From: Escherichia phage SP27
Reading direction: 5' to 3' (one strand)
DNA length: 64,000 nucleotides
Sequence record: LC494302.1
A model generated the notes under the pieces. It was not told the DNA's origin. It did not search any database and saw nothing but the letters and a program-made list of their open reading frames with translations. This document shows, in pieces, positions 17,973 through 62,867 of the stretch. The translations under genes were made by a program, and so were the position numbers. Numbering within the stretch: position 1 is the first letter of the stretch; each line of letters begins with the position of its first letter.

Positions 17973-19127
17973 TTATGCGTTGTAACCAACTATTACGACT
18001 GAGCAGTCAAGCGGTTCTACTACTTTAAGAATTACATTATCATCTTCATCCACTTGTATTTCACTATGAACTACATGATTGTCTGAAGAATATAATTGAA
18101 CTTGTGGTAGTGCTTTACCATGTTCAGTTACTGGAACTGAGATAGAGTACATAGAGTCTTCACCGAGAACCCACTCACTTAAAGTATATTCTTTATGGAA
18201 AGGAGTAGTATGCAGTGTTTTTCCGATTATACTCAAAGAAACAGGTAAATTATCAGTTTGATACACAGTAATATTACCTTCTGCGTCTACAGAAAGATCT
18301 ACACCAACTTGATATAAGTCACCACTGTATGCTTGAAGTGCTAAGTACTGTCCACGATCATGAACATCAAATGGAACAACCGCAGAAAATACACCTTCCG
18401 AAACAGGTTCAAATTGGGATAGAAGAACTGATGTAACAAAATCAATATCCTCACCACTTTCAAGAACATCAAATTCCACCACTTTAGTGTTATAATATGG
18501 AGAAGTGAGCGTAGCAGTACCTTTCCCTGATTGTGTGATAACATCAACTGGAATTGTAAATGCATCATTAACAAATTGGGTAGTAAAGTATTCTGTCCCG
18601 TCTGGTAATACGATTGTTATTACCATACCGTTAGTATCAATTTCTGAACCAGTGTTGAATAATTTACCACTAATTGAGTCATTACCAACAAATACTGGTG
18701 AAATGAGAATATTATCTATATCACGATCTATAATACCACATTCAGGTGTATACATATGATACAAGGTTTGTGAACTACCTAAAATTGTTTTATGTAGCAT
18801 AAATTTATATACAAATCCAGTATCAGTTTCTTGTGGCTCTTCAGAATATCCACGAACAAAGAAACAATTTTTATTAATTTCACTTAATAGTTGGTCATTA
18901 GTTTTATTGTAATTTAATATATAACCTTTATTATCTTTAGTTGTTATTTGTACTTTACGATATATTATATTAGTTCTTGGATCAACTAAATCATATAATC
19001 TATGGCTTCTTTGGCGATAGATTCTAATATTTTTTAGTCTAGTTCCATCGTTGAGGATTGCACCATCAACAACATAACCACATTCACCAAACTTATAGCG
19101 TCCAGCCGCAGCAATTGACCTTGACAT
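17973..19127 (-). CDS. beta-rich hypothetical protein, likely late/structural
   Basis: 384-aa ORF, only minus gene in the left 49 kb; GGAGGG SD and late-type promoter upstream. Confidence 0.75.
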   Translation of the reverse strand: MSRSIAAAGRYKFGECGYVVDGAILNDGTRLKNIRIYRQRSHRLYDLVDPRTNIIYRKVQITTKDNKGYILNYNKTNDQLLSEINKNCFFVRGYSEEPQETDTGFVYKFMLHKTILGSSQTLYHMYTPECGIIDRDIDNILISPVFVGNDSISGKLFNTGSEIDTNGMVITIVLPDGTEYFTTQFVNDAFTIPVDVITQSGKGTATLTSPYYNTKVVEFDVLESGEDIDFVTSVLLSQFEPVSEGVFSAVVPFDVHDRGQYLALQAYSGDLYQVGVDLSVDAEGNITVYQTDNLPVSLSIIGKTLHTTPFHKEYTLSEWVLGEDSMYSISVPVTEHGKALPQVQLYSSDNHVVHSEIQVDEDDNVILKVVEPLDCSVVIVGYNA

Positions 19128-19140: not shown

Positions 19141-19170
19141 GGTATAATTATTATAACGTATTTATTATGC
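19141..19170 (-). promoter_or_regulatory. late-type promoter candidate
   Basis: Minus strand reads GCATAATAAATACGTTATAATAATTATACC; resembles T4 late TATAAATA and the RCC1-array cassette promoter. Confidence 0.45.
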
Positions 19171-36210: not shown

Positions 36211-36594
36211 ATGGTTGATAAATGGAATAAGAAAGATCCATCACATGATGTTGATATTTCTGGTCTAGACAATGCACATAAGCACAAGTATCTAGATTCA
36301 CTAGGTCTTCTAAAACCAGACCAAAGTCTTGCACATGATCGTCCATCCCGTGAAAAAGCATTTAGCCTAGAATCACTAGGTCATGAGCTTAATCGTGTGT
36401 TTGAGGATCACCCAATCTATGTACGTGATATTATCGAGAAACTTAAAGTAACTCCTAAAGAGCACTTTAAAGCAACTGTACACTCTGCATTCCGTGCATT
36501 ACATGAATCTCTAAAGAAAACTCACAATCTTCGTAAAATTCATGATGAAATCGTGAATGCAATCGAAAGTGAAAAACATAAGTTCAAGAAGTAA
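36211..36594 (+). CDS. hypothetical protein (paralog of N-part of 36840)
   Basis: 127 aa; KYLDSLGLLKPDQ and ...IIEKLKVTPKEHFKATV align with 36840. Confidence 0.65.
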   Translation: MVDKWNKKDPSHDVDISGLDNAHKHKYLDSLGLLKPDQSLAHDRPSREKAFSLESLGHELNRVFEDHPIYVRDIIEKLKVTPKEHFKATVHSAFRALHESLKKTHNLRKIHDEIVNAIESEKHKFKK

Positions 36595-36839: not shown

Positions 36840-38117
36840 ATGAAATCTATGGAGAGAAATCAAATGCCAAGTAATTTTACTGATAAAAATGGTGGTAACA
36901 TGGCTGGTCACTCTGATAAATGGAGTGAACGCAACCGCCGTCCAAATAGTTATCAAGCAGGTCAAGGTTCACGTGGATCACGTAACCAAGGAACTGGTCT
37001 AGCTGGTAAAGCAAACGCAGAAGCAGGTGAAGTTAAGAGTACTGAGAACATGACTGAGCTAGAAAAGCTACGTTATGTTAATTCATTGGGACTTCTTAAT
37101 GCTACACAAAAACAACGCCTAGCTGATATGGAACGTGAAGAAAAAGAAAAGTCTGCTCCTGCGAAAGAAGAACCAAAACAAGAAGCACCAAAGGCGGTTA
37201 ACCCTGTCAAAGAACTGTCTGATAAGTTAGGTAAGATTTTTGCTAATAAACCACAACTTATCCAAGGTATTGTGAAAGAATTGCAATCTGTACCTAAAGA
37301 AGAATTAAAAGTCAAAGCACAAGCTGTGCTTGATGCAATGAGTGGAAATACCAGTACTGAACCAACTGAAGTATTCAGTACTATAATGCGTGCACTTGAA
37401 GGTACGCAACAAGGTGATGTGCCTGCACAAGAGGAAGTAAGTCTTGAAAGCGTACTTAAAACATTTGATAGTATTGGTAAAGAAGACCGTGCTAATGCTC
37501 AACAAGTTAAGAATGTACTAGCTAAGTTAGAAAACCGTCTGGAAGGTAAAGACGATAAGATTAAATTAGTATCTGATGCAGTTAACGATGCACTTAAATC
37601 TTATGTACAAGGTGAAAAGAGTCGTTTTGTAACTGCAATGGATGCTGCATTCAATACTATGAAAAAGTATGAAGCTGATCATGGTGAGAAGGTTACACGA
37701 GATGGTTATCTGATGCGTGATGATGAAGAAGGTGCAGTAGAACAGAACGATGTTCATTCAGACGAAGAAATTGATGACATGGAAGCTGAACTGTCACAAG
37801 ACCGCCAAATGACTGAAAAATCCCATAACGAACTACAGAAATTAATGCAATGGGTTGCAGATGTTGGTGAAAAAGCTGGTGCTGATAAGAAGAGTATAAA
37901 TCGAAATCTTAGTTGGATTAAAGATAAAGTTGGTAACAACGCTCGTAAACTACAAAAAGCGTGGACTGATGTAGTGAATGGTGCTGTTGATATTGATGTT
38001 GAATCCGGTGAGGCATATGATTATGCATTGACTACACTTGATGACTCTTTCCGTGATTACGAAAATGGAAATGTAACTCCTTGGGAAAAGGACATCATGA
38101 GCAAATACGGTAAATGA
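36840..38117 (+). CDS. large charged hypothetical protein (start may be 36864)
   Basis: 425 aa, K/E/D-rich; N-part paralogous to 36211..36594; antisense ORFs judged spurious. Confidence 0.7.
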   Translation: MKSMERNQMPSNFTDKNGGNMAGHSDKWSERNRRPNSYQAGQGSRGSRNQGTGLAGKANAEAGEVKSTENMTELEKLRYVNSLGLLNATQKQRLADMEREEKEKSAPAKEEPKQEAPKAVNPVKELSDKLGKIFANKPQLIQGIVKELQSVPKEELKVKAQAVLDAMSGNTSTEPTEVFSTIMRALEGTQQGDVPAQEEVSLESVLKTFDSIGKEDRANAQQVKNVLAKLENRLEGKDDKIKLVSDAVNDALKSYVQGEKSRFVTAMDAAFNTMKKYEADHGEKVTRDGYLMRDDEEGAVEQNDVHSDEEIDDMEAELSQDRQMTEKSHNELQKLMQWVADVGEKAGADKKSINRNLSWIKDKVGNNARKLQKAWTDVVNGAVDIDVESGEAYDYALTTLDDSFRDYENGNVTPWEKDIMSKYGK

Positions 38118-43700: not shown

Positions 43701-43706
43701 AGAAAA

Positions 43707-43739: not shown

Positions 43740-43767
43740 CATTTCATCGAAACGAGAGGATGAATAC

Positions 43768-44982: not shown

Positions 44983-44988
44983 CATAAA

Positions 44989-45021
44989 GGGTTGACTTCG
45001 GTCAGCCCTTTTTGCTATAAT
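44989..45021 (+). promoter_or_regulatory. fused terminator/early-promoter cassette
   Basis: GGGTTGAC-TTCG-GTCAGCCC, T5, TATAAT; almost identical to 43707 copy. Confidence 0.7.
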
Positions 45022-45049
45022 TATTTCATCAACTGAAGAGGGTAAAGAA

Positions 45050-48710: not shown

Positions 48711-49373
48711 ATGATGAAATCAAAATTAGGTTTGTTTTATAAAAACTATTTTGTTAAACAACGTAAATTTATAAAAAAATATTTCTCTGGCGAGAAGTCT
48801 AGTCCTATAATCTTTAAAAGACCAAGTTATAATACTTACTTAGCTGGTGCTAAACAGTCTAAGAAATTTATTACTCTTTTACATAAAAACAAAATTAAAG
48901 CTTCTTATGTTGAAACGAGAAGAAACTCATCAATAACTCCTGGTGATTTTATTGAGTACGGATGTTTCAATATTAAGTACAATGATAATACATACTTTAT
49001 GGATATTGATTGTAATACATCCAATCTTTTTAACATTGTAGTAAATCCATTAAAACAATATAATGTTTATGGTGATTCTATTATCAAATTAATCAAAAAC
49101 AAAGATAGCTTTGATTTTGAAATAAATGTTTTAGATGATAATTTTGACGAAGTACCAGTAAACCCTGAAATCTGTGATATTTTAAACAGTTTAAAAGGTA
49201 GTACCTACACTATATCATCTGATTTAATGTTTCAGTACTCATTAATCCATAAAGATATTGAAAAGTATATTGAATGCTCCAGAATTTTGAATTTTCTCTA
49301 TGATGAATTTAAAAAGAGTTCTAAAATAACTGCATACACTTTGTACAATATTCCTAAAATGGTGAATCTTTAA
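48711..49373 (+). CDS. FQxST-motif family protein
   Basis: 220 aa, AAGGAG SD; motif SSDLMFQYSLIHKD; last plus-strand gene. Confidence 0.65.
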   Translation: MMKSKLGLFYKNYFVKQRKFIKKYFSGEKSSPIIFKRPSYNTYLAGAKQSKKFITLLHKNKIKASYVETRRNSSITPGDFIEYGCFNIKYNDNTYFMDIDCNTSNLFNIVVNPLKQYNVYGDSIIKLIKNKDSFDFEINVLDDNFDEVPVNPEICDILNSLKGSTYTISSDLMFQYSLIHKDIEKYIECSRILNFLYDEFKKSSKITAYTLYNIPKMVNL

Positions 49374-49777
49374 CAAATACAGTACTGGCAACTCCACCGT
49401 CTGTAATATATTGTCCAGTACTGTAAATTTGTATACCATCGGTTAAGTAAGTTCTGTATAAAGTTGCTGTAACATATACGTTATTCATATTCATCTCTAT
49501 TGGTAGTACACATTTGGTATAGGCCGACACATCTGTTTGTGTACCTATACCCAATTGACCTGCGTTATCGCCTGTGTTATTACCAGTTGCGTAAACACCC
49601 AATGAAGTTATAATATGATTAGAAAAATATGAATAACCCAAACTCTTGAGATTCTCTACTGTACAACGTACCATCTGACATAAGGGCAAAAACTGTTGTA
49701 TCAGATGAAGCTATTTTTGTTACAGAAGGTTGTATGTTCTGTTTTGATGATGTGATAATTCTTCGAAAGGGTAGCAT
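49354..49777 (-). pseudogene. collapsed RCC1-like paralog (first blade fused out of frame to last blades)
   Basis: ATG 49777 gives MLPFRRIITSS...DGTLYS then stop at 49619; other frame (49354..49689) encodes C-terminal blades GVYATGNNTGDNAGQLGIG. Confidence 0.55.
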
Positions 49778-49849
49778 TGTATCCTCCAAATGTAAATCGT
49801 TATTATATTTAGGACAAAAAAATGCCAGTACAAGGCACTGGCATAAAAT
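49778..49849 (-). promoter_or_regulatory. array cassette, diverged copy
   Basis: Minus strand: GCCAGTGCCTTGTACTGGC, T7, TAAATATAATA, GGAGGA, ATG. Confidence 0.5.
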
Positions 49850-51019
49850 CTAAGCAGAAGGCATATCCTTCATCTTAATAAATGAAAATTGTGTACCAGT
49901 ATTTGTGGTTTGATCAGTAAAATATGAATTACTACCAGCCCAGTACAATTCATTATTAACTATACAATATATAACAGAACTCGAACTCTGTGAATACACA
50001 CGACTTATATTTGATGGTTCTACTCCAGTACTGAACTGAACCGAACCCAACTGTGAACTTGGTATCACATCAGTTGGTCTACCTAAACCATTAACACCAG
50101 CCCCACCACCACATGTATATACCCCAGTACTATCAGTTGATATATTAACATAACCATTTCCAGCATTTTCAAATAGTATTTCACTGGGAACAACACCAAA
50201 TCCTGTAAGATCTATTTTCCTGAATGTAGTATAAACCGTAGAACCGCCAACACCTCTTCCACCATAATCATTAGAACCAGCCATATAGATACTATATCCA
50301 GAACTTCCTAAACATAATAACTGTACGTTGTCATATAATATTTGCATAGATATAACGTTATCAGGAATACTCAATACCGTAAAAGTAGTTAAAGAAGAAC
50401 TTCCAATATTACTACCAACCGATGTTCCACATCTGTAGTACTTACCGCCCTTTATATAATGGAATGATGAACCACCTAATTTATGTGCTCCTATTGCACT
50501 TACCTCAGTATCTATGAGAATGGGAGATACAACTTTGTTATTAACACCTAACTCAGATCTACTGTTCATACCGAACCCATATAAACGACCATCTAACATC
50601 AATATTAGTGTACTACCTGATGTACCCGCTGATGTAAATTCTATATTCTTTATCTGTGACACGTCAATACCTACAAATAATGAAGTTACTTCAGTCCAGT
50701 TAACATATGAACCACTAGCCCCAAAATATCCACCCATGTATAGTCCGGCACAATATAACTTATTATCAACCGTCTTTATTAATGTACCGGATACACACGC
50801 CCAAAAATCATCAACTTCATAGGGTACATGTACCCAACCACCTAATACATCACTATCATTCCCTGTTCCTAATTTGTAGTTCGATCCAGAACCACGCATA
50901 TACATATTCCCTGTACTATAAAGTAATCCGACATGTAATTGACTACCATCCAATTTCTTTATTTCGGGAAGAGTTGGTTTAATATTTCCGTACTTTAACA
51001 TTCTTCCAAAAGGTAACAT
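49850..51019 (-). CDS. RCC1-like repeat protein with MLPF tag
   Basis: Trimmed to MLPFGRMLKYGNIKP; blades with GSNYKLGTGN, GMNSRSELGVNN. Confidence 0.8.
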   Translation of the reverse strand: MLPFGRMLKYGNIKPTLPEIKKLDGSQLHVGLLYSTGNMYMRGSGSNYKLGTGNDSDVLGGWVHVPYEVDDFWACVSGTLIKTVDNKLYCAGLYMGGYFGASGSYVNWTEVTSLFVGIDVSQIKNIEFTSAGTSGSTLILMLDGRLYGFGMNSRSELGVNNKVVSPILIDTEVSAIGAHKLGGSSFHYIKGGKYYRCGTSVGSNIGSSSLTTFTVLSIPDNVISMQILYDNVQLLCLGSSGYSIYMAGSNDYGGRGVGGSTVYTTFRKIDLTGFGVVPSEILFENAGNGYVNISTDSTGVYTCGGGAGVNGLGRPTDVIPSSQLGSVQFSTGVEPSNISRVYSQSSSSVIYCIVNNELYWAGSNSYFTDQTTNTGTQFSFIKMKDMPSA

Positions 51020-51097
51020 AATTCCTCCTTTATTCATTATACTATATTTAATACAAATAAGAAAGCCAGTACAAAGTACTGGCATAGTTTTATAGTA
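51020..51097 (-). promoter_or_regulatory. array cassette (hairpin terminator + late-type promoter + SD)
   Basis: Minus: GCCAGTAC-TTT-GTACTGGC, TTTCTTATTTGTATTAAATATAGTATAATGAATAAAGGAGGAATT-ATG. Confidence 0.7.
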
Positions 51098-52207
51098 TTA
51101 TTTCGGCATTGTAATTGCAGACCATGAGTTCGTGGTAATAGGACCTGGTACATACAAAAAAGAACCACAAGCATAAATTTGATTATTACCATCAAATACT
51201 ATACTAAAATGTGCACATGTGTATAATGATGATTTTTCTGGGTTGTAATTATCTAAAGTTAGTGTATTGGTGAATCTACTCAAACCACCTCCCGAACCAT
51301 TTCTACCAAATTCACCAGTACTGTATATCTTTCCTTCGGTTGTTGCGTACATATTAACATATGAAGTCGCACTTGATTTTGATATTTTATGTATCTTACT
51401 ATCAATAGTAGTGGAGTTAAATGCAAATGGATATACTTGTGTGTTCGTTGTAATACCGTTACCAAGTTGACCAATATACTGCCAACCTGCGTTGTATATA
51501 TTGCTGGCTGAATAAGCAAGAGTACCAGTACTGTTACCACCAAATAGTTTAACACTTGTTAACCTGCTTACTAGTGTAGTATACTGTCCTGGACTTACGC
51601 CAAGTGAACCATACCCACTGCTCCCGCAACCGAGAAGTTCATTATTTGATGTTAATATTAATGTGTTATTCTGTGTACCCAATATATCAAGAACTGTATT
51701 AGCTCCGGTATTAATAACTGAAACAAAAGTACTCTGAGCCGTGGAATACCCACCACCGAGTGAATAGTTACCATTCATGCCTCTACCATAAACAATCGAA
51801 CCACTAGCATCAACGTAGTGCATTGTATCTGCACCAATTGATATCATTTTAATATTAGATATATGTGGAAATGAAGAAGTAACATTCAAACCACCCAACG
51901 GAATCATAGTATTTCCTGTGCCTAATTGTGTGGTAACTCCATGCATTATGAATTCTTCACCCTTGAGATAAAGAATATTGTACGCACCAGCCCATGCATC
52001 AGTAACACCTTCTGAAATTAATATCCAAGTATTTCTTGTTGCTGTATTTTCAACGTTTAACTGCAAATACGTATTAACCCCACAACCATAAAGTGAGCCA
52101 TCGCCATAGAGGACGTACAAATTATCAAGACCGCACAGTACTTTCTTTATCTTTGGAGCTTCAGGTGCAATATTTCCGTACTTAACCATTCTAGCAAAAG
52201 GTAACAT
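51098..52207 (-). CDS. RCC1-like repeat protein with MLPF tag
   Basis: MLPFARMVKYGNIAP; GSSGYGSLGV, IGQLGNGI; SD directly after upstream stop (no cassette). Confidence 0.8.
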   Translation of the reverse strand: MLPFARMVKYGNIAPEAPKIKKVLCGLDNLYVLYGDGSLYGCGVNTYLQLNVENTATRNTWILISEGVTDAWAGAYNILYLKGEEFIMHGVTTQLGTGNTMIPLGGLNVTSSFPHISNIKMISIGADTMHYVDASGSIVYGRGMNGNYSLGGGYSTAQSTFVSVINTGANTVLDILGTQNNTLILTSNNELLGCGSSGYGSLGVSPGQYTTLVSRLTSVKLFGGNSTGTLAYSASNIYNAGWQYIGQLGNGITTNTQVYPFAFNSTTIDSKIHKISKSSATSYVNMYATTEGKIYSTGEFGRNGSGGGLSRFTNTLTLDNYNPEKSSLYTCAHFSIVFDGNNQIYACGSFLYVPGPITTNSWSAITMPK

Positions 52208-52217
52208 AAATTCCTCC

Positions 52218-53397
52218 TTAAATTTGTGGCAATTGGTATTCAGTTAAAGTCCATGTACCAACAACTGTCCCTACTGGAGACATACCAGTGTAGTATAATT
52301 TCCCATTCACATATGCAAATAATGCATTGTCATTCGCAGCAACCAACGATGTTGACGGATCATAAACTACAGAATTTGGAAATTGTGCTTGGACGAAAAT
52401 TGAAGCATTATTAGATGAATTGTTACCAAGCTGTCCATAATTATTATACCCTGTTCCAAAAATACGACTTCCATTTCTATATAATAATCCCCTAGGATTT
52501 TGTGAATATGTTTGTATAAATTCAAAATCGGAAACATTAGTTAATTGTAAATAAGTACTTTGTGGCGTTAAAGATATCTTATTAGTATTAGATAGAACAC
52601 CATTTCCTAATTGTCCGTGAATTTTGTGACCCTACACCATATAGCGGATAAGTATTATCTACATTAAGAACTATACCCAACATATTGTTATATGAAATTA
52701 TATCAACGGGGTACTGGCCTGTAGGAAAACTATACTTTGTCCAACTCGTCAAAGTATCAGTAGCAGAACCAGTTAACAATGTACCAGTACTAGTTTTACC
52801 ACATCGCCATACTGAATTATCATTTTTAATTATCCAAGTCGGACTATTGAAAAATGAACTAACCTTTTTAACATTAATATTAACCTGTGTAAATGATGTA
52901 AGTGTAGATGAACTACTACCCAACTCATAGGTCGAATTATCACCTATTGCGTAAAGAACACTATCATTTGTTAGTAAAAACATATTACGAACATTTGGAT
53001 ATATCTCCTTGATATTATCCACATTAAAACCTGAAAAATAAGACGTACAATCAACAAATGTAGTACTTTGAACTGCACTAGATGTACCAGTCCAAAGGTT
53101 CCAACCTGCATAATAAAATTTATTATCATTGGTCTGAACTAAGCTATATGAAGCATTCCTTGTGCACCAAAAATTTTTCACATTTTGCATTAAGCGAACC
53201 CATTTGGTCTGTGTCGTTGTATTTCCAAGACCGAATATACCAGCATTGTTACCGCCAATACCCCACAAATCACCGTTCTTATACAGAATCATCAATGTGT
53301 TGTTGGTAAAAGCCGATGGTGCTTGCATTTTAATTACACTAGATTCATATATAGGTGCTATATTCCCGTACTTAACCATTCTTGCAAAAGGTAACAT
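52218..53397 (-). pseudogene. RCC1-like paralog interrupted by a +1 frameshift
   Basis: Frame A MLPFARMVKYGNIAP... stops at 52588; +1 frame continues HGQLGNG...GYNNYGQLGNNS... to TAA 52218; shift near A4 run 52622-52625. Confidence 0.6.
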
Positions 53398-53505
53398 AAA
53401 TCCCTCCTTTATTCATTATACTATATTTAATACAAAAAGAAATGCCAGTATCAAGTACTGGCATTATGTTAATTAATAGTGTCTTTCTAAACACATTTCG
53501 TGCCT
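53398..53505 (-). promoter_or_regulatory. array cassette (longer copy)
   Basis: Same hairpin/promoter/SD plus ~37 extra nt after upstream stop. Confidence 0.7.
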
Positions 53506-54681
53506 TTATTCAGGTAGTACCAATTTCTTCATTGTAACTTGTTGTGTACCTGGACTCTGTTCCTGAAACATAGACCCGTTACCACACCAGTACACCTCAT
53601 TAGTCCCCACTAACGCGTATAACACACCAGAACCACCTTGTACTGAAAATGCATTAACATCTGGTGCAACATCCATATCCTCATATTGTACCTGGTGGTA
53701 ATAAGATCTTTCTGATGCAGTAGTAACAGGCCAACCAAGAGGAACACCACTACCACATGTATAAAGTTTACCATTCTGTGTCATTGCCATTATAAAATAA
53801 TTCAAACTGTGATTGTTCATCGACCCAGCATCTGGTATAATACCACTAATTTCGGGAGTAGCACTAAATGGACTCATTGTAACCTTCGTGTCTCCATACC
53901 CAATTCCTAAACAATAATCAGTGTTTATCCCAGCAGTATATACTCTAATATTACCCTTATTCGATGTAAGTACTGAAGTCGTCAAATTAGTACATGAAAT
54001 ACCAATAACTGTTCCAGATATATCAGTACTTACTGTAAATGTGGATAGTTTAGATGCACTTGTACCTAGGTTATAACTTGCGTTATTACCACATCTGTAA
54101 TATTGACCATTTTTAACATAATGTAAAGCACCACCAAAGTGTGTACCAGCAATCATAGTAACACCAGTATCAATCTTAATCGGTGTCGCTTTTGCACCAG
54201 AAACACCCAGTTCACCTCCAGTATTACTACCTATCCCGTATAAATCACCATTGCTTAACATAATTAATAAAGTACCATTTGAAGCGACAGTCTCAGTAGA
54301 AGCTATATCTTGAACTGTAGTAAGGCTTGGTATTGTAGACAATATTGATGTAATATTTGTCCATCCTGGAACAGGCGATTTGACCACACCAAGGTATCCC
54401 ATTTGTCCTGCTAAGTAAAATTCTCCTTCAGTCGTAAGTATAATGGTCCCTGCGGATAAACACCAAACATTAGCAACTTTATATGGACACTGTATCCATC
54501 CATTTTGTAAATACGCAGTACTATCATTTCCTAGCCTATATTGTGCACCATTACCACGTAGATATAAATTGCCACTATCGAACAACATACCCACATGTGT
54601 TGTAGATGTAGCAATCTTCAGTACACCCGAAGGTGCTGGTTTAACATTCCCGTACTTAACCATTCTTGCAAAAGGTAACAT
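53506..54681 (-). CDS. RCC1-like repeat protein with MLPF tag
   Basis: MLPFARMVKYGNVKP; GSNTGGELGVSG. Confidence 0.8.
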   Translation of the reverse strand: MLPFARMVKYGNVKPAPSGVLKIATSTTHVGMLFDSGNLYLRGNGAQYRLGNDSTAYLQNGWIQCPYKVANVWCLSAGTIILTTEGEFYLAGQMGYLGVVKSPVPGWTNITSILSTIPSLTTVQDIASTETVASNGTLLIMLSNGDLYGIGSNTGGELGVSGAKATPIKIDTGVTMIAGTHFGGALHYVKNGQYYRCGNNASYNLGTSASKLSTFTVSTDISGTVIGISCTNLTTSVLTSNKGNIRVYTAGINTDYCLGIGYGDTKVTMSPFSATPEISGIIPDAGSMNNHSLNYFIMAMTQNGKLYTCGSGVPLGWPVTTASERSYYHQVQYEDMDVAPDVNAFSVQGGSGVLYALVGTNEVYWCGNGSMFQEQSPGTQQVTMKKLVLPE

Positions 54682-54753
54682 AAATTCCTCCTTTATTCAT
54701 TATACTATATTTAATACAAAAAGAAATGCCAGTACTTGAGTACTGGCTTTATG
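54682..54753 (-). promoter_or_regulatory. array cassette
   Basis: GCCAGTACT-CA-AGTACTGGC hairpin, conserved promoter/SD block. Confidence 0.7.
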
Positions 54754-55905
54754 TCAATAAACATCCCAAGGTAATGGTGTCTTTCTAAACCCATACCTAG
54801 TTGCGTTCTGCCCATCTCCGGCAATGTATCTACCGGTCCCACACTGATATAATTCAGTACTGCTACATATCGCACCACCAATAGTACCACTACACCACTG
54901 TGTTATATTAGAATATAATATTGGTAAATCACTACATTTGGTATATAATGCAACAGTGGCAGCCCCGCTCGGACCACCAAACACACTTCGGTTCGAACCC
55001 GTGTAATATATGCCATCTGGACTCATAAATGCAGATGTATAAGTTGTACTGCAATCCACTGGACTTCTTATATTATTAAGATCGCTTGGGTATGCTCTAG
55101 CACCATATGTGTATACATTACCAGCAGTAGTAATACCATTACCTAACTGACCATCATTTTGTCCACCACATGTAACCAACGATGCAGTACCGGAAACAAT
55201 TGCAGTAGCATTATACGAAGTACCTATAGCAATAGAAGCACCCGCCCTTTGGGATGGGGTAGGAACTGCGGCTGCGTTCCCCTGACCTAATTCACCATTG
55301 ACATTTCTTCCCCATCCATATACCGAGGTGGTATCTAATTGACATAGTACTGTACCATAACTAAACGTATATCGTATATCTTTCACAGCCGATGGTAAAC
55401 CACTAACTTTAGTTGCAACACTAATAACTCCAGAAACACCAGTAACTCCAGCGTTTGCGTTCATATTACGTCCATATGCGTATAAAGAACCATCAGCAGT
55501 TTTAATATGCATCATGCCATCTGTGCAATATAATGCATCGATGCTATCCACTACAACCGCTCCCATACTAGACGTTATATCGTTCCACCCAAGCGTTGTA
55601 GTACTAGAAATTAAGTTATTTCCGGCGTAAAGTATTCTATTATCATTTGTAACAACTACAGTATAATTGGTAGTAACGCCAATTAATCTAACATTCTCAT
55701 GTATCTTAGACCACATTCCTATTGAATTTGTGTTAGCGTCCAGAAATCCCAACTGACCAGCGGTATTATATCCAATACCCCACACATCACCTTCACTGTC
55801 CAATAACACTTCATGTGAAAAGCCAATCTTAAAATCTTTTATTGTAGGAACTACTGGAACTGGTGCAATATTCCCGTACTTAACCATTCTTCCAAAAGGT
55901 AACAT
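54754..55905 (-). CDS. RCC1-like repeat protein with MLPF tag
   Basis: MLPFGRMVKYGNIAP; GYNTAGQLG, WGRNVNGELGQGN, GQNDGQLGNG. Confidence 0.85.
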   Translation of the reverse strand: MLPFGRMVKYGNIAPVPVVPTIKDFKIGFSHEVLLDSEGDVWGIGYNTAGQLGFLDANTNSIGMWSKIHENVRLIGVTTNYTVVVTNDNRILYAGNNLISSTTTLGWNDITSSMGAVVVDSIDALYCTDGMMHIKTADGSLYAYGRNMNANAGVTGVSGVISVATKVSGLPSAVKDIRYTFSYGTVLCQLDTTSVYGWGRNVNGELGQGNAAAVPTPSQRAGASIAIGTSYNATAIVSGTASLVTCGGQNDGQLGNGITTAGNVYTYGARAYPSDLNNIRSPVDCSTTYTSAFMSPDGIYYTGSNRSVFGGPSGAATVALYTKCSDLPILYSNITQWCSGTIGGAICSSTELYQCGTGRYIAGDGQNATRYGFRKTPLPWDVY

Positions 55906-55977
55906 AATTCCCCTCCTTATTCATTATACTATATTTAATACAAATAAGAAAGCCAGTATCAAGTACTGGCCTATATT
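55906..55977 (-). promoter_or_regulatory. array cassette
   Basis: Conserved hairpin/promoter/SD block. Confidence 0.7.
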
Positions 55978-56715
55978 TTAGACTGAATTGTTAGGATAAT
56001 ATCTCCCACGTCCCCATATTATTCGCACAGCACCACCACCAGCAGCCGTATAAGAAAAATTATCCCATATACTACCACCACCACCATACATCTTACCAGC
56101 ACCACCACTACCAGCACCACCATTATATGAACCATCGTATCTACCGCCAATACCATTAGCACCTTGAACAATGATACCAGTACCACCACCCGTACCAATG
56201 AACGAGGTATTATAGAATGCACCACCACCACCGCCGCCGCCAGCACCATTTTCACCAGTGATTGCATCTCCGTTACCACCTTTACCAGTGTAGCCACCAG
56301 CACCACCACCAATGACTGCACCACCACTTACACCAGCGTTGCCCCCATTACCACCACCATCATTAATAGCGTTAGCAGCTTTCCCACCTAGTCCACCAAC
56401 CCTATATTCACCAGTGAAGCTAACACATAGTTTTTCAGTTCCACGATATAAACCGTTTTCAACTGCTGTAGTAGTGTTGGGATGTGTAAGAGAAACACTT
56501 AAGTACTCACCACTAGTAACCGGAATATTATTACGCCACGATAAGCCGCCACCAGCACCACGTTGACCACCCGGCGAAATAACACATACTGATATTTCGG
56601 TAACGCCAGCAGGAACTGTAAATTGTGTTGTTCCTATTGTCGTGATTAATTGTTCACCATCTGGCTTATATTCAATTTTATTCCCGTACTTTACCATTCT
56701 TCCAAAAGGTAACAT
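55978..56715 (-). CDS. glycine-rich protein carrying the same MLPF tag
   Basis: Trimmed to MLPFGRMVKYGNK; FTVPAGVTEISV..., long GGxGG tracts, ends GGGAVRIIWGRG...; no RCC1 blades. Confidence 0.75.
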   Translation of the reverse strand: MLPFGRMVKYGNKIEYKPDGEQLITTIGTTQFTVPAGVTEISVCVISPGGQRGAGGGLSWRNNIPVTSGEYLSVSLTHPNTTTAVENGLYRGTEKLCVSFTGEYRVGGLGGKAANAINDGGGNGGNAGVSGGAVIGGGAGGYTGKGGNGDAITGENGAGGGGGGGAFYNTSFIGTGGGTGIIVQGANGIGGRYDGSYNGGAGSGGAGKMYGGGGSIWDNFSYTAAGGGAVRIIWGRGRYYPNNSV

Positions 56716-56786
56716 ACTTCCTCCTTTATTCATTATACTATATTTAATACAAATAAGAAAGCCAGTACTCAGTACTGGCTATTATA
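56716..56786 (-). promoter_or_regulatory. array cassette
   Basis: Conserved hairpin/promoter/SD block. Confidence 0.7.
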
Positions 56787-57974
56787 TTATAATTGTCGGG
56801 GTGTATCTAGTACATATCTAGTTGTACTAGGACCACCATCATCATAAGTTCCGGTTGAATATATATTTTTCATATCAGTTAGAAATGTACGATATGAACC
56901 TCTATATATTTTTATTTTATCATACATAGAATATGTTATTTGTGTAGGCATTGGACATGCAGTAAACTTACCAACAGTTGCACTAGTACCAATACCCAAT
57001 GAACCAGCATAACTACTGGCATTTAAACCAGTTGCATATACACCAGTACTCGTAATTAGTATACTAGATTGTGGTGGGTATCCAGTATGAATTGAATACA
57101 AAGTACCGGGTGGTAACGTCGTACTGTTATTTCCTAAAACTCCATTAACAGAGCTAGATGTAGTGTTATTTCCCCATGCCCCATTATTAGCTAACCCACC
57201 GACAAGGAACTGACGTGCTCCTGTATTTGGATTTTCAACTAAAGCACTTACTGCACCAGTTGAGCATCCTGTGTATTGTAACGTTTTTGTGTATGTTGTA
57301 TTTGGTTGATATAAAGTATATTGATTATATGAAGTCCATGTAGTCGCGGAACTTATACCGGATGTAACACCACCAATATATAAATTATTTTGTTTATCAA
57401 ACAACAATACACAGTTATTTGTTGACTGTATTTGTGCAATATCAACATTAGGTGTGACCGCTTTTACAAATGAACCATCGGTTATTTCATAAGTAGTTCC
57501 CGTTCCATCGGCGAATTGTCTAGCACTGTTCCACCCTGTACTCCATATTGTATTATTGTCCATTAAGAAAGTAAACCACGTAGTACCTCCATACATCTGT
57601 TTAATTGAAGTACTTGAACTTTGTGTGTACAAATTTTGAATATATTGGTTATAACTTAAAAACGTAGTAGTACTAGTTGATAAACCAATATGACTACCAT
57701 ATCCACAGTAATAATAATTTGAGTCATTGTCTTTTACTAATAAAGTTCCTTGTGTAAGCCAGCAATCGTTAACGTTTTCTCTAATTAATGTCCATGATTT
57801 TAATGCAGTGTTGTTTCCTCTACCGAATTTCCCAAAACTATTATTCCCACGTGCATATAGTTGACCATCCGTATACAGAACCACAACATCTAAATCAGTT
57901 GGGATTATTTTCTTAATTTGAAGTGGTACTGGGGCAATATTCCCATAATTCATCATTCTTGCAAAAGGTAACAT
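56787..57974 (-). CDS. RCC1-like repeat protein with MLPF tag
   Basis: MLPFARMMNYGNIAP; GNNSFGKFGRGN, GWNSARQF. Confidence 0.8.
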   Translation of the reverse strand: MLPFARMMNYGNIAPVPLQIKKIIPTDLDVVVLYTDGQLYARGNNSFGKFGRGNNTALKSWTLIRENVNDCWLTQGTLLVKDNDSNYYYCGYGSHIGLSTSTTTFLSYNQYIQNLYTQSSSTSIKQMYGGTTWFTFLMDNNTIWSTGWNSARQFADGTGTTYEITDGSFVKAVTPNVDIAQIQSTNNCVLLFDKQNNLYIGGVTSGISSATTWTSYNQYTLYQPNTTYTKTLQYTGCSTGAVSALVENPNTGARQFLVGGLANNGAWGNNTTSSSVNGVLGNNSTTLPPGTLYSIHTGYPPQSSILITSTGVYATGLNASSYAGSLGIGTSATVGKFTACPMPTQITYSMYDKIKIYRGSYRTFLTDMKNIYSTGTYDDGGPSTTRYVLDTPRQL

Positions 57975-58045
57975 AAATTCCTCCTTTATTCATTATACTA
58001 TATTTAATACAAATAAGAAAGCCAGTATCAAGTACTGGCATTAAA
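57975..58045 (-). promoter_or_regulatory. array cassette
   Basis: Conserved hairpin/promoter/SD block. Confidence 0.7.
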
Positions 58046-59194
58046 TCATTGTATAAATGACATATCAACTTCTGTATAACTAAGAATGTTTTGTCCAGCA
58101 ATTCCCCCCATTACTACCATAGCATACCCACAATAATATAATTGCTCAGTGTCCGTAAGTATAAGTGAACCAGATGGAGTGCGTACCAAATTACACGAAC
58201 TATTAAACGAAGTATACGAAGGAGTATATGAGTACTGATTAATATTATTACCAACACCTAATTGACCAAATCCATTCGACCCAGATGCGTATAGAACTTC
58301 ATCACCTTTAGCTATATGTGATGCCATGTTACTAACACACGTATATAGAGTATAAACTCCTGAACTCAATAATGTCGGAGTTTTGTATTGTATATCGGTA
58401 GATGAAGAAGTACCACCTGTGCCAAATTCGTTCCCGTATTGTGCACCGAACTGTTTACCACAAGCGTACAAATTATTATCCGATTTAATAAAAAATGTAC
58501 TTTGATAACTTACATCAAAATCTATAACATCCGAAGCAATCATCGTCACCCCAGTAATAGAAGTTTGATTACCTGTACCTAACTGATAGTAATAGTTAAA
58601 ACCACAACCCCATAAAGTATTATCTTCTTTTAGGTATATGTTACCAACTGCCTTTTTAACCGAAGTTATAGTATCTACCCTTTTGAATGTGTTAAAAGAA
58701 TTAATGTTTGTACCATCACCAAATGATGATAGGTTCGAGTTATTGTTAACTCCACAACAATACAACGTACCATCGTTTGTTATCAAATTCACCTTCATAT
58801 CATTAAAACTACTCATGTATTTTATATCAGAAACATTAATACCACCTGATGTTATCCACGTAGTACAGTCCGTCCACAAAGTTTTTGTATCAGTTACACC
58901 AGTGAATGCCTTCGTGTTACCAGTGATAAAAACTTTTCCAGTACCTTTCTCTTCATACAATTGACAACTACTACTGTTATCTTCCAATAGAACTCGTTTA
59001 ACATTCTCCGCACAAAGAATAAATTTACTCGATGCTACACCTGTACCAGTACCCCAATTCGTCGAAGAAGATGCATACAACTTATTAGTATAAGTATCAT
59101 GAAGATACATAGAATCACTTGAATATATTTTAAAACGCCTATCCTTACCAGGGGCAATATTCCCATAATTCATCATTCTTACAAAAGGTAACAT
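58046..59194 (-). CDS. RCC1-like repeat protein with MLPF tag
   Basis: MLPFVRMMNYGNIAP; GFNYYYQLGTGN, GSNGFGQLGVGN. Confidence 0.8.
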   Translation of the reverse strand: MLPFVRMMNYGNIAPGKDRRFKIYSSDSMYLHDTYTNKLYASSSTNWGTGTGVASSKFILCAENVKRVLLEDNSSSCQLYEEKGTGKVFITGNTKAFTGVTDTKTLWTDCTTWITSGGINVSDIKYMSSFNDMKVNLITNDGTLYCCGVNNNSNLSSFGDGTNINSFNTFKRVDTITSVKKAVGNIYLKEDNTLWGCGFNYYYQLGTGNQTSITGVTMIASDVIDFDVSYQSTFFIKSDNNLYACGKQFGAQYGNEFGTGGTSSSTDIQYKTPTLLSSGVYTLYTCVSNMASHIAKGDEVLYASGSNGFGQLGVGNNINQYSYTPSYTSFNSSCNLVRTPSGSLILTDTEQLYYCGYAMVVMGGIAGQNILSYTEVDMSFIQ

Positions 59195-59265
59195 ATTTCC
59201 CTCCTTTATTCATTATACTATATTTAATACAAATAAGAAAGCCAGTACAGTGTACTGGCATTATA
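59195..59265 (-). promoter_or_regulatory. array cassette
   Basis: Conserved hairpin/promoter/SD block. Confidence 0.7.
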
Positions 59266-60405
59266 TTATTTCCACGGTAGAAGTGAATCAGGAACCCTTG
59301 TTGGTACAGTAGTTGAAGACATTCCAGTAAGATTGGGTACACCACATGTGTATAAATTATTATATTCGTCAACTAACATCGTATAAGAATAGCTCTTACA
59401 AAAACTACTAAGATTACTACCTTCTAATGCAGTAAGATCCATTTCAGCGAATGATGTTATATACATATCAGTTGTACCAATACCACATTGACCATTTGAA
59501 TTAAGGCCACATGAAAATAACTTATTATTATTATTAATTATACAGGATGGTCCGGTAAGGTTTGTCCCAAGCTCACCCACCAACTCCACTTCTCCTTGGA
59601 ATGATAAATTTGGAATTAATGTACTCATTGGGGCTACTGACCTATTTCCTGTACCTGCTTGTCCATAGTCGTTAATAGATGCAACTTTAACATTACCATC
59701 ATTAAGAAATATATAAGAAGTTTCATTTGTATTGACTGCTTTAATTGCATTACTAATCGAAGTATCTTGTGTAAATGTGAGCAAGTTTTGTGTCGTCGTT
59801 CCTGATACAAACGTTCTACCTGCATACCAATATGAACCATCATTTAGTACTAATCCAGTACTATATATTGCACAACCAGCACTGATAACATTTTCTATTG
59901 TACTATAGGTGAATCGTGAAACGCTTGAAGTTGATCCATTCCCAAAAACACCACCAGTACCAGCACCACAGTAGAACCACTTTCCATTTTTTAAAAATAC
60001 ACGCATACACGAAGATATCACAACACTATCAATATCATCTGCACTGACACCGAAATCAGTAAAGTTCTGTGTTATATCAACCCAAACGCCGTTAGTGTTT
60101 GAAGATAGTATTGGAATAACAGTACGTCTACCAGTGTACCAAATAGTACCATCTTTCTTTATAGCAATTGTTCCTTGTACCCCACCCCAATATCGTGTAA
60201 CATTTGAGTTGACAAGAGTCCATTCAGTTGAAGAGTCCAATGAACCATTACCACTTTGTCCATATGCTGAAGAACCAAACCAATATAGATTGCCATTTGT
60301 GTGTAAATAAAATTTGGCATCAGCAGAACATTGTAACCTGTTTTTAGGTAGAATCAGTTCAGGTGCGATATTCCCGTACTTAACCATTCTTGCAAAAGGT
60401 AACAT
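59266..60405 (-). CDS. RCC1-like repeat protein with MLPF tag
   Basis: Tracked ORF reads through the cassette; trimmed to MLPFARMVKYGNIAP at 60405; GLNSNGQCGIGT, NDYGQAGTGN. Confidence 0.8.
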   Translation of the reverse strand: MLPFARMVKYGNIAPELILPKNRLQCSADAKFYLHTNGNLYWFGSSAYGQSGNGSLDSSTEWTLVNSNVTRYWGGVQGTIAIKKDGTIWYTGRRTVIPILSSNTNGVWVDITQNFTDFGVSADDIDSVVISSCMRVFLKNGKWFYCGAGTGGVFGNGSTSSVSRFTYSTIENVISAGCAIYSTGLVLNDGSYWYAGRTFVSGTTTQNLLTFTQDTSISNAIKAVNTNETSYIFLNDGNVKVASINDYGQAGTGNRSVAPMSTLIPNLSFQGEVELVGELGTNLTGPSCIINNNNKLFSCGLNSNGQCGIGTTDMYITSFAEMDLTALEGSNLSSFCKSYSYTMLVDEYNNLYTCGVPNLTGMSSTTVPTRVPDSLLPWK

Positions 60406-60475
60406 ATTCCCTCCTTTATTTGTTATACTATATTTAATACAAATAAGAAAGCCAGTACTCTGTACTGGCATTATG
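60406..60475 (-). promoter_or_regulatory. array cassette
   Basis: Conserved hairpin/promoter/SD block. Confidence 0.7.
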
Positions 60476-61585
60476 TTATTTTGGTAAATCAATTTTAGTA
60501 AAGACTGCAACATCCTCGATTGCACCTGGAATGGCGTAATACGATCCAGTACTATACACATCTCCATTTTTGGTTAATATCGATGTCAAACCATCACTAA
60601 AAAGAACATCCCTAATCTCACTAACTTCAACGGGTAATTGTAAATTGGTAGCACTATATATAGCACCAGTTTGAGAATTGTTTAATCCCAAACCACGGTT
60701 CGCCCCAACACCCTTCTGATATGTACTAGTAATTACCATTTGTGTAGCAGTATTTAAGGCAGGTGAATTCGTCATAAACAACGGAGAACTATTAGGCAAA
60801 GTACTTAAAGGAACTGCACGGAATGTAGTCGTACCTGAACTAAGAAAGTTTGGAGTTTGACCACATACGAAATATGATGTACCATTATAGTAATTTAATG
60901 CATTACCACCAATGGCTGCATCGATTACACCAGAACTACGCAATCCCCAAGTGTTAATTTGTGTTTGGTTCCCCGTACCATGCTGCCCACTACTATTCCA
61001 TCCAGAACTATATAGCTTATTATCTAATGTAAGATACATACTATCATTCGCATTGGTCATTACTTTACGAACGTTCGTAGCACATTGAGTTAATGTGTAA
61101 ATTGATGATGAACCAATACCCAAAGAACCACGATATCCATTATCTCCTGCACCATAGAGTACTGAATTAGTGCTAAGTACAAATATTAAACCATTTGTAC
61201 ATACAATATTAGCAATTTCACTTACTGGTATAGCATTGGTAAACCAATTAGTTCTTTCAACTAATACAGTACTGTAAGAAGTAGTTGTAGAAGATGAGAA
61301 CCAGTACGTTTGACCTGATGTCCATATCGTATTATCATTTTTAATAATAACAAGTGTACGATCACCCACGAAAAAATTAGAAACATCTGCACTTACTAAT
61401 GTCCACGAAGACACCGTGTTGGTATTACCATTTCCAGATTCACCACCTTGATTTCTACCTATGTAATATAAATCATGTGAATCAGTCAATAAGAATTGGC
61501 CTTGGGTAGAAGCACCAACTTTAATTATTTTTTTAGGACCAGGGACAATATTTCCATACATAATCATTCTTCCAAAAGGTAACAT
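60476..61585 (-). CDS. RCC1-like repeat protein with MLPF tag
   Basis: Trimmed to MLPFGRMIMYGNIVP; GRNQGGESGNGN, GWNSSGQHGTGN; SD directly after upstream stop. Confidence 0.8.
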   Translation of the reverse strand: MLPFGRMIMYGNIVPGPKKIIKVGASTQGQFLLTDSHDLYYIGRNQGGESGNGNTNTVSSWTLVSADVSNFFVGDRTLVIIKNDNTIWTSGQTYWFSSSTTTSYSTVLVERTNWFTNAIPVSEIANIVCTNGLIFVLSTNSVLYGAGDNGYRGSLGIGSSSIYTLTQCATNVRKVMTNANDSMYLTLDNKLYSSGWNSSGQHGTGNQTQINTWGLRSSGVIDAAIGGNALNYYNGTSYFVCGQTPNFLSSGTTTFRAVPLSTLPNSSPLFMTNSPALNTATQMVITSTYQKGVGANRGLGLNNSQTGAIYSATNLQLPVEVSEIRDVLFSDGLTSILTKNGDVYSTGSYYAIPGAIEDVAVFTKIDLPK

Positions 61586-61593
61586 ATTCCCTC

Positions 61594-62796
61594 CTATTGT
61601 TGCCATAACTGCGATGGCATTAATGTTAGTGTAGTAATACTATAAGTGCCATCTGGCAATCTACCACCATTTCCATTCCAGCCACCACATGCATATAATT
61701 TATAATCTTTAGTAATTATTATGGTTCTGCTCCAATCTTTAGATGCCATAAGAACATTGTCATAACCACTACTTATTGCACTAAGATTAAAAATATTCCA
61801 AGTTCTAACTAATGTATTAGTTCCATTACCTTCTTGACCATATGAGTTAGCACCACTACTTCTAACATATGGTGCGTATTGTGCCATAGGTGCACCAATT
61901 GATGCATTTCCCATATTACTTGGACAAATAAAAGTACTGTACTTACTTACATCAACCGTGACCGATGTGTTCCTAATTGGTGTTAGCTGATTTACCGATG
62001 TAGTCGTACCATTACCAGCTTGTCCAGAACTGTTAGCCCCGCTATAATATACAGACCCACCAGTAGTAAACCACCAAGTAACATCGTATGTAGTACTAAT
62101 ATGTTCTACATTACTAATCACGAATTTGTTCAAATATACAACAGAACTACCACCACATCCACTTTCACCAAAGTTATCCTTACCACAAAACCATGCATCT
62201 TTATTTGATTTGATATAGTGCGTTCCTTGTAATGAACATGCCATATGTGTAACTTCACCCATATTAGTCATAACTGTGAGTGTAGGGATGGAATTTTTAT
62301 TCCCAGAGCCACATTCACCATTAGTATTTCTTCCACACGCAATTACTCTACCATCGGTTAATAATATTCTAGTACTTTCACCTATATATACACTCTTGAT
62401 CATATTAGCCATAACACCTATTTTATTAAATGCAACAGTAACATCAGTCCATGTTGTCAAATAACCATTAACAGGTGTTGCATCTCCATAATCAGAAAAT
62501 GCACCAACCGACCCAGTGTAGTATATTTTATTATCCAAATCAATCATCAATGAACCTTGAACACCAAGCCAAAAGGCTGCACAGTTCCTTGCAAGTACTG
62601 TAAATGACGAAACTGCTGCTGAATTCCCAAGACCAAATTGATAAAAGTTATTACTACCATAACCATATAAAGTATTAGTTGGGTTATGGAGATACATACA
62701 GTTTGTATAATGTTGTTGTAAAACATCTGAGAACTCTACAGGTTCTGGACCTGGTGCAATATTTGCGTACTTAACCATTCTTCCAAAAGGTAACAT
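61594..62796 (-). CDS. RCC1-like repeat protein with MLPF tag
   Basis: MLPFGRMVKYANIAP; GRNTNGECGSGN, GANSSGQAGNGT, GANSYGQEGNGT. Confidence 0.85.
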   Translation of the reverse strand: MLPFGRMVKYANIAPGPEPVEFSDVLQQHYTNCMYLHNPTNTLYGYGSNNFYQFGLGNSAAVSSFTVLARNCAAFWLGVQGSLMIDLDNKIYYTGSVGAFSDYGDATPVNGYLTTWTDVTVAFNKIGVMANMIKSVYIGESTRILLTDGRVIACGRNTNGECGSGNKNSIPTLTVMTNMGEVTHMACSLQGTHYIKSNKDAWFCGKDNFGESGCGGSSVVYLNKFVISNVEHISTTYDVTWWFTTGGSVYYSGANSSGQAGNGTTTSVNQLTPIRNTSVTVDVSKYSTFICPSNMGNASIGAPMAQYAPYVRSSGANSYGQEGNGTNTLVRTWNIFNLSAISSGYDNVLMASKDWSRTIIITKDYKLYACGGWNGNGGRLPDGTYSITTLTLMPSQLWQQ

Positions 62797-62867
62797 ATTT
62801 CCCTCCTTTATTCATTATACTATATTTAATACAAAAAGAAATGCCAGTATCAAGTACTGGCATAATA
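62797..62867 (-). promoter_or_regulatory. array cassette
   Basis: Conserved hairpin/promoter/SD block. Confidence 0.7.

Follow-up and report, generated by a model that had tools for sequence, protein, structure and literature searches.

A repeated hairpin and promoter cassette with a shared coding head in the RCC1-like propeller array of Escherichia phage SP27: a candidate late expression module and recombination site

The window analysed here is a 64,000-nucleotide (nt) stretch of Escherichia phage SP27 (sequence record LC494302.1), in which approximately 49 kb of small plus-strand genes are followed by an array of minus-strand genes that mostly encode RCC1-like propeller proteins and are mostly separated by copies of one short cassette. 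The array genes are oriented opposite to the flanking early genes. A megablast search of positions 49000-64000 against a phage collection matched 36 jumbo phages of Escherichia and Salmonella that belong to the 121Q/PBECO4/phAPEC6/G17 group (genus Asteriusvirus), and the window is part of an Asteriusvirus jumbo coliphage of the 121Q/PBECO4/phAPEC6 group with a genome of roughly 350 kb. The closest match was vB_EcoM_E9.1 (E9.1) with 95.8% identity and only 83% of the query covered, while other relatives covered 27-61%; this uneven coverage led to the suspicion that the locus is variable. Tandem arrays of RCC1-like ('DNA condensation') genes, the same in locus and protein family as the array described here, have already been reported in 121Q, PBECO4 and phAPEC6, including their tandem duplication and virion association (PMC7247149; PMC5259590). 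The papers on the Asteriusvirus group found by a literature search made no mention of the cassette, the shared N-terminal peptide, concerted evolution of the cassette or breakpoints.

Pfam searches of the array proteins produced matches to RCC1, RCC1_2 and RLD, with PF00415 and PF13540 above the curated cut-offs in several paralogs, while no RCC1 match was found by Pfam for the glycine-rich product of gene G or for the product of the gene at 17973..19127. The AlphaFold2 model of the gene B product showed a seven-bladed propeller (mean predicted local distance difference test score, pLDDT, of 90.6 and predicted template modelling score of 0.87), and its best Foldseek matches were UVR8, RPGR, the RLD of HERC2 and RCC1 (E values of approximately 1e-18 to 1e-13, TM-scores 0.6-0.75). 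The 'DNA condensation' label is inherited from eukaryotic RCC1, and guanine-nucleotide exchange or chromatin activity is unsupported by this analysis. In phAPEC6, the array proteins gp003, 005, 006, 007, 009, 010, 549 and 551 were found in virions by electrospray ionisation tandem mass spectrometry (MS), as was gp077 with 384 amino acids (PMC7247149). The latter is the homolog of the window gene 17973..19127 and falls in a PHROG annotated as 'virion structural protein'. The one RCC1-like protein of GAP32 is also a virion protein (PMC5259590). A role of the RCC1-like proteins as 'hairy' whiskers was considered and is unlikely because the whiskers of CBB exist without an RCC1 homolog (PMC5259590). 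The frameshift in gene J, shared with 121Q, G17, SHEFM2K and phAPEC6, could reflect either a truncation that is tolerated or programmed frameshifting; gp007, the corresponding product of 30 kDa, was among the proteins detected in phAPEC6 virions (PMC7247149).

The sequence-only reading of this DNA had described a cassette in ten copies, nine near-identical and one diverged, and both its coordinates and its description were borne out by a core search and an alignment. Nine near-identical cassettes of 64-67 bp and one decayed copy were located between the minus-strand genes at 49778-62861 (Table 1). The 31-nt core GTATTAAATATAGTATAATGAATAAAGGAGG had nine minus-strand matches with at most three mismatches, six of them exact, and none in 100 dinucleotide shuffles. 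A repeat-family search recovered a 135-nt family with nine members and an 81-nt family with 11, the latter taking in the N-terminal coding part, at a spacing of approximately 0.8-1.3 kb. Collection of all ATGTTACCTTTT starts with their upstream 110 nt yielded 11 genes; nine carried the 64-67-nt cassette and two had only a Shine-Dalgarno sequence (SD) adjoining the upstream stop codon, at the same two junctions from which the cassette had been said to be missing. Each cassette is arranged in the order GCCAGTAC-loop-GTACTGGC, T-rich tract, TTAAATA-TAG-TATAAT, GGAGG and ATG TTA CCT TTT, and the alignment showed that the hairpin arms, TAAATA, GGAG and ATGTTACCTTTT were invariant. While the described copies were all present, the array is longer than had been claimed, as a further gene runs off the window edge. 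In all relatives the array ends in the decayed copy D, in which the gene is broken and the second box lost while the hairpin, TAAATA and SD are retained; the window copy is shorter than those of E9.1 and 121Q through an internal deletion. An Rfam search of the cassette produced nothing above noise (sole match with E = 0.96), and a scan of IMG/VR with a degenerate cassette pattern matched only 121Q itself, with no new lineages.

Table 1. Features of the window and array maps of the window and its relatives. In the maps, paralog types are defined at an 80% amino-acid threshold; '=' is a cassette junction, '.' a junction without cassette and '~' a junction with the promoter box but no match to the hairpin pattern. 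aa, amino acids.
Feature	Position	Strand	Remarks
Array gene at window edge, RCC1-like	62868..>64000	-	3' end matches E9.1 gene labelled L
Gene E, 400 aa, RCC1-like	61594..62796	-	starts MLPFGRMVKYANIAP
Gene A, 369 aa, RCC1-like	60476..61585	-	
Gene F, 379 aa, RCC1-like	59266..60405	-	
Gene B, 382 aa, RCC1-like	58046..59194	-	7-bladed propeller from approximately residue 20 (AlphaFold2)
Gene C, 395 aa, RCC1-like	56787..57974	-	first 44 nt = gene B's in relatives
Gene G, 245 aa, glycine-rich	55978..56715	-	phrog_4474 (function unknown); shares array N-terminal peptide and cassette
Gene H, 383 aa, RCC1-like	54754..55905	-	homolog of phAPEC6 gp005, virion protein by MS
Gene I, 391 aa, RCC1-like	53506..54681	-	homolog of phAPEC6 gp006, virion protein by MS
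Gene J	52218..53397	-	called open reading frame 269 aa (52588-53397); last 370 nt continue RCC1 in another frame
Gene M, 369 aa, RCC1-like	51098..52207	-	
Gene K, 389 aa, RCC1-like	49850..51019	-	
Terminal decayed copy D	49354..49777	-	frameshifted and truncated RCC1 remnant
Cassette upstream of E	62797-62861	-	hairpin 62843-62861, TAAATA 62823-62828, TATAAT 62814-62819, SD 62802-62806
Cassette upstream of F	60406-60469	-	hairpin 60451-60469, TAAATA 60431-60436, TATAAC variant 60422-60427
Cassette upstream of B	59195-59259	-	
Cassette upstream of C	57975-58039	-	
Cassette upstream of G	56716-56780	-	serves the non-RCC1-like member
Cassette upstream of H	55906-55971	-	
Cassette upstream of I	54682-54748	-	4-nt loop TCAA
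Cassette upstream of J	53398-53462	-	
Cassette upstream of K	51020-51083	-	
Diverged tenth cassette, upstream of D	49778-49842	-	hairpin, TAAATA, GGAGG retained; second box TAACGA
Cassette-free junction E to A	61586-61593	-	stop TAG overlaps SD, TAGGAGGG; with start TAGGAGGGAAT-ATG; same in five genomes
Cassette-free junction J (remnant) to M	52208-52217	-	TAAGGAGG; with start TAAGGAGGAATTT-ATG
Hairpin loop TGA	56769-56771		compared with relatives
Hairpin loop TCAA	54736-54739		compared with relatives
Hairpin loop TTT	51073-51075		compared with relatives
ATAAATA-CGT-TATAAT box	19150..19166	-	exact TAAATA-N3-TATAAT 19150-19164; upstream of gene 17973..19127
Second repeated cassette family	33351-33401, 36594-36644, 36777-36827, 38120-38170, 39205-39255, 43700-43750, 44982-45032	+	
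Array map, window			(L)=E.A=F=B=C=G=H=I=J.M=K.D
Array map, E9.1			N=L=E.A=F=B=C=G=H=I.K.D
Array map, SHEFM2K			N=L=E.A=F=B=C=e=H=J.K.D
Array map, PBECO4			E.A=F=B=C=e=H=g~h.D
Array map, G17			b=E.A=c=B=O=C=G=I.d.J.K.D
Array map, 121Q			B=O=A=F=C=G=P=H=I'=J.M.D
Array map, phAPEC6			B=i=O=A=j.c=C=G=H=I=J.M=K.D
Array map, EJP2			largely different gene set

The repeat extends past the start codon into the first 12-15 codons, which encode MLPF-x-RM-x-x-YGNIAP (N-terminal tag MLPFGRMVKYGNIAP), so that cassette and coding head together give roughly 100-115 bp of near-identical DNA at each module start. Beyond alignment column 20 the 11 window paralogs had a mean identity of 20%, and recent duplication as the cause of cassette identity is ruled out because the paralogs share only approximately 20% amino-acid identity. 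Synonymous sites in codons 2-12 were frozen among the window paralogs: codons 2, 3, 4, 6 and 12 were each a single codon in 11 of 11 copies (TTA, CCT, TTT, AGA and AAT) and Lys9 was AAG in all eight copies with Lys, while conserved Gly, Leu and Pro columns outside the head used three to five different codons each. The cassettes of EJP2, a more distant species, were likewise homogeneous and of a type of their own (CCAGTAC-loop-GTACTGG, T7, GTAAATAC-AT-TATAAT, TTGGAG). Cassettes of the same genome had an identity of 0.85-0.87; for window cassettes compared with those of EJP2 it was 0.64, even though for proteins A, B and L the orthologs share at least 80% identity. Cassettes that are homogeneous in each genome yet different between species indicate that the cassettes undergo concerted evolution.

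Purifying selection on the expression signals could by itself account for cassette identity, with recombination incidental to the evolution of the array. The invariant columns are the functional boxes, the hairpins have fixed stems and freely varying loops, and the N-terminal peptide is conserved as protein in distant homologs. This explanation is difficult to reconcile with synonymous sites and spacers that are frozen within a genome when the window group and EJP2 have different cassettes throughout their length, with other predicted late promoters of the same phage that share a 7-nt core alone and not 65 nt, with the three indels described below, which have crossovers inside the repeat, and with the mosaic of cassette sub-variants. 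Overall, selection as the sole cause is improbable.

The protein encoded by the coding head showed features of its own. In the AlphaFold2 model of gene B, residues 1-17 had pLDDT below 50 and lay outside the propeller fold, and a role of the N-terminal 15 residues as a propeller 'velcro' strand was rejected on this basis. The motif M[LI]PF-x-R-x-x-x-YGN was kept in homologs down to 37% identity and was restricted to array genes, gene G included. The N-terminal peptide is also under selection at the protein level, and its presence on the non-RCC1 gene G shows that the head is portable onto an unrelated domain.

Each cassette hairpin is placed directly past a stop codon, has 7-11 predicted pairs (G-T allowed) and is followed by a T-tract at the right distance. 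RNA folding recovered the hairpin in 10 of 10 copies, and a terminator consensus scan of 15 kb found 22 sites against 6.4 expected, with all cassette hairpins included. Equivalent hairpins are carried in the GenBank record of G17 as ARNOLD terminators of -10 to -13 kcal/mol. The scan and the G17 annotation agree with the earlier proposal that hairpin and T-tract form an intrinsic terminator, which is the probable role. At the array-head promoter, which has no gene upstream, TAAATA-N3-TATAAT, SD and the N-terminal parts were present and the hairpin was absent, which fits a terminator role. Sequestration of the SD in read-through transcripts occurs for T4 gene e and soc; a similar pairing of the U-tract with GGAGG in read-through RNA was considered here and rejected, since the helix, at -5.7 to -7.1 kcal/mol, was weak and did not outperform shuffles (z -0.7 to -1.2).

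The hairpin arms are the two halves of the palindromic octamer CAGTACTG, which was found 38 times in the window against 0.76 expected (38 was reached in 0 of 100 shuffles). The first 200 kb of phAPEC6 contained 87 copies. The octamer was also seen directly upstream of early-promoter -10 boxes (e.g. 9853, 10332, 27287 and 41955) and was common within open reading frames (ORFs) too. The stem sequence, beyond pairing alone, is common to the window group and EJP2. At orthologous junctions, loops were reverse-complemented between phages (TGA/TCA and TTT/AAA upstream of G, TCAA/TTGA upstream of I and CTTGA/TCAAG upstream of C). Overall, a reverse-complement partner existed for 10 of 15 distinct loops, where 2.4 would be expected (P about 3e-4), and these loop flips are minute inversions at perfect 7-8-bp palindromes. 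The conserved stem, the excess of the octamer and the flips would all suit a hairpin that is mainly a CAGTACTG-based site (for protein binding, cruciform formation or as a recombination hotspot) or an RNA-stability or processing element and not a terminator. Such a reading is unlikely in view of the T-tract and stop codon that frame every hairpin and of the missing hairpin at the array head; furthermore, site and terminator roles are compatible with each other.

For the promoter part of the cassette, the sequence-only reading had pointed to a T4-like late box. T4 late promoters, TATAAATA, depend on gp55, gp33 and gp45, and their transcription starts about 6 nt past the element. Late-motif statistics were obtained from the first 200 kb of phAPEC6 on both strands, for ORFs of at least 60 amino acids and distances of 16-64 nt upstream. 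ATAAATA was depleted, with 41 copies against 102-155 for 7-mers of the same composition that lack the TAAATA core, and 27 of the 41 stood upstream of an ORF, compared with 6-18% for the control 7-mers. TAAATAA, which overlaps ATAAATA, behaved alike (40 copies, 47%). The motif was located 25-50 nt before the ATG of the major capsid, scaffold, protease and baseplate wedge genes, and the downstream genes included 15 MS-confirmed virion proteins. In addition, phAPEC6 gp237c matched the late-sigma families phrog_12791 and phrog_234, a result shown in this relative for a gene outside the window. All three window copies of ATAAATA upstream of an SD and ATG preceded homologs of virion proteins. ATAAATA stands at 36168-36174 and 36816-36822 on the plus strand, in an otherwise early region, upstream of 36211..36594 and 36840..38117, whose phAPEC6 homologs (gp037c and gp035c) are virion proteins by MS. 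ATAAATA has also been predicted as a late motif in the Rak2-like phages CBB and GAP32 (PMC5259590).

The composite box had been reported to recur upstream of the gene 17973..19127, and this was confirmed by an exact copy there; no exact TAAATA-N3-TATAAT was found elsewhere in the window outside the array. As a general late promoter the exact composite was rejected, because the first 200 kb of phAPEC6 has it only at the array and gp077. The claim of a late-type promoter is supported through the (A)TAAATA core, which is the one general part of the composite and is shared with sequences upstream of virion genes, and ATAAATA is proposed as a testable candidate consensus for Asteriusvirus late promoters.

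TATAAT could instead be the -10 box of the host sigma-70 or of the RpoD-like sigma encoded by the phage at 23924-24889 (plus strand), which has regions 2, 3 and 4, and the array would then be early or middle and not gp55-type late. TATAAT is perfect in 8 of 10 window copies and EJP2 has TATAAT or TATGAT, but the cassette promoter has no -35 (TTTCTT at 17-nt spacing) and no TG extension, a sigma-70 scan was at chance level (71 sites against 74 expected) and the early promoters on the other strand of the window look different (TTGACT-N17-TGTATAAT). TAAATA was retained in both cassette lineages, the array head and the decayed copy while the second box varied. A start 7 nt past TATAAT would leave a leader of only approximately 10 nt with the SD at its 5' end, whereas a start approximately 6 nt past TAAATA would fall in TATAAT and give a more plausible leader of approximately 20 nt. 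With products that are virion proteins and genes that run opposite to the flanking early genes, a sigma-70-type promoter appears doubtful.

Comparison of eight genomes showed 10-15 array genes in each and about 40 paralog types, with content and order varying. The repeats had been proposed as substrates for homologous recombination, which is supported by these differences and by three indels with crossovers inside the repeat. The F=C junction of 121Q was identical to F=B of E9.1 up to codon 15 and to B=C from the SD spacer on. Between B=C of E9.1 and B=O=C of G17 the crossover fell in the same interval, SD spacer to codon 15, and between G=H and G=P=H of 121Q the switch was in or 5' of the hairpin. 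The B(/O) block forms the array head in 121Q and phAPEC6, and the relocated gene B of 121Q has a chimeric N-terminus. Cassette sub-variants (U-tract type, TATAAT/TATAAC and SD spacer) were combined as a mosaic. Gene A has an upstream cassette in 121Q and phAPEC6 and none in five other genomes, which points to cassette gain or loss; loss had been suggested earlier. The further suggestion of accordion-like change was only partly upheld: 'shuffling and replacement' describes the pattern better than 'accordion', as gene number stays within 10-15.

The phAPEC6 record (MK817115.1) contains a 100%-identical 2.4-kb duplication of i=O joined inside a cassette at the record origin, with part of the SD missing; most likely the repeats gave rise to an assembly overlap that was left untrimmed. 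That all array differences are short-read assembly artefacts of this kind is very improbable. Independent isolates share the main arrangements, with E.A=F=B=C in the window, E9.1, SHEFM2K and PBECO4 and the B-first order in 121Q and phAPEC6, and the differences involve unique paralog types beyond reordering. The repeats of approximately 115 bp are also shorter than typical reads.

With a probability of roughly 0.7, the composite regulatory cassette and its coding head act as a late expression module and as a site of homologous recombination in an array of virion propeller genes. The hairpin GCCAGTAC-loop-GTACTGGC with its U-tract would terminate the transcript of the upstream gene. It would be followed by a -35-less late promoter, TTAAATA, a variant of ATAAATA and the putative counterpart of T4 TATAAATA, read by a gp55-type late sigma, with transcription probably starting in TATAAT, 3 nt past TTAAATA, and then by the strong GGAGG SD. 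The flexible N-terminal peptide probably serves as a shared tag that docks or targets the proteins for incorporation into the virion, and most propeller genes would be self-contained late expression modules. Through the repeat of roughly 100-115 bp, homologous recombination may delete, insert, replace or relocate whole genes within and between related phages, and would also homogenise the cassettes by concerted evolution.

Several points weigh against this interpretation. The U-tract is interrupted (UUUCUUAUUU), so read-through is possible, and several junctions have no cassette, which means that insulation would not apply to every gene. TTAAATA upstream of ORFs is nearly confined to the array while other genes have ATAAATA, and TATAAT is a perfect -10 hexamer that could alternatively be sigma-70-type. 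A literature search for Asteriusvirus transcriptomes found none, so termination efficiency, start site and timing rest on sequence. Insertion and deletion are indistinguishable for each event, repeat-array assemblies can contain errors such as the phAPEC6 duplication, and the fairly constant number of genes favours constrained replacement over free expansion and contraction.

The closest known system is the promoter-early stem-loop (PeSL) of T4-like phages, a terminator stem-loop with a strong early promoter that is repeated in hyperplastic regions (PMC2839356; PMC4122927). PeSL elements mediate modular shuffling with crossovers between -10 and ATG, between SD and -10, or in the loop, and mini-circles are formed (PMC2839356). 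The array cassette resembles them in the order of terminator stem-loop, A/T-rich stretch, promoter, SD and ATG within one small intergenic unit, in its many copies in a variable region where each flanked gene gets its own expression signals, and in the whole-gene insertions, deletions and replacements with crossovers inside the cassette among close relatives, which were located here from SD to codon 15 or in the hairpin. It differs in that the putative promoter is late-type with a TAAATA core and no -35 and not a strong sigma-70 early promoter, and that the first 35-45 nt of each coding sequence belong to the repeat and specify a common N-terminal peptide. Its cargo consists of tandem virion-associated paralogs and not of unrelated ORFans, and the host is an Asteriusvirus of roughly 350 kb while PeSLs occur in the Tequatrovirus, RB49 and KVP40 groups. 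The array cassette thus appears to be a late-gene variant of the PeSL-type mechanism.

The plus strand of the window carries a second repeated cassette, AAGGGTTGACTTCGGTCAGCCCTTTTTGCTATAAT, with a terminator hairpin, TTGACT as -35 within the stem and then TATAAT as -10. These early cassettes are overlapping terminator and early-promoter units and true PeSL-like elements; in the G17 record the homologous hairpins are given as terminators of -17 kcal/mol. Six tRNA genes (Gly, two Ser, Met, Asn and Thr) are clustered within 8200-12642, also on the plus strand.

With the T4 late promoters and the ATAAATA motif of CBB and GAP32, the cassette promoter shares a short A/T-rich -10-like element without -35, located 25-50 nt upstream of structural genes, and a gp55-family late sigma is present in relatives of this phage. 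It differs in its TTAAATA core in place of (T)ATAAATA, the late assignment here being a prediction from sequence, and, unlike most other candidate late promoters of the genus, it has a fixed TATAAT 3 nt downstream. Hairpin-associated minute inversions are known from chloroplast non-coding DNA, where, as in the cassettes, the loop between short perfect inverted repeats flips and the stems stay unchanged; the setting here is a putative phage terminator hairpin.

Recombination at this locus may exceed ordinary homology-driven exchange. A bolder and unlikely reading is that the locus is a system of the 'plug-and-play' kind, dedicated to diversifying binding modules displayed on the virion. The flexible N-terminal peptide could plug a propeller, or an unrelated domain as in gene G, into a common socket of the particle, and the terminator and late-promoter cassette could make each module autonomous. 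The palindromic CAGTAC hairpin could be an actively targeted hotspot, through cruciform cleavage or a CAGTACTG-binding factor, with the loop flips as its footprint, and modules could be exchanged well above the rate of ordinary homologous recombination.

These findings do not overturn current understanding. In jumbo phages of this genus, 10-15 propeller proteins that have diverged strongly from each other are part of the virion, and each of their genes would be packaged as an exchangeable late expression module that carries a common N-terminal tag. Swaps of whole modules at the cassettes would provide a concrete mechanism for the diversification of the array and would show that the PeSL concept, so far tied to early ORFans, also applies to late structural genes. 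Finally, the cassettes may offer handles for engineering by module swapping, and the N-terminal peptide may serve for loading foreign proteins onto virions.

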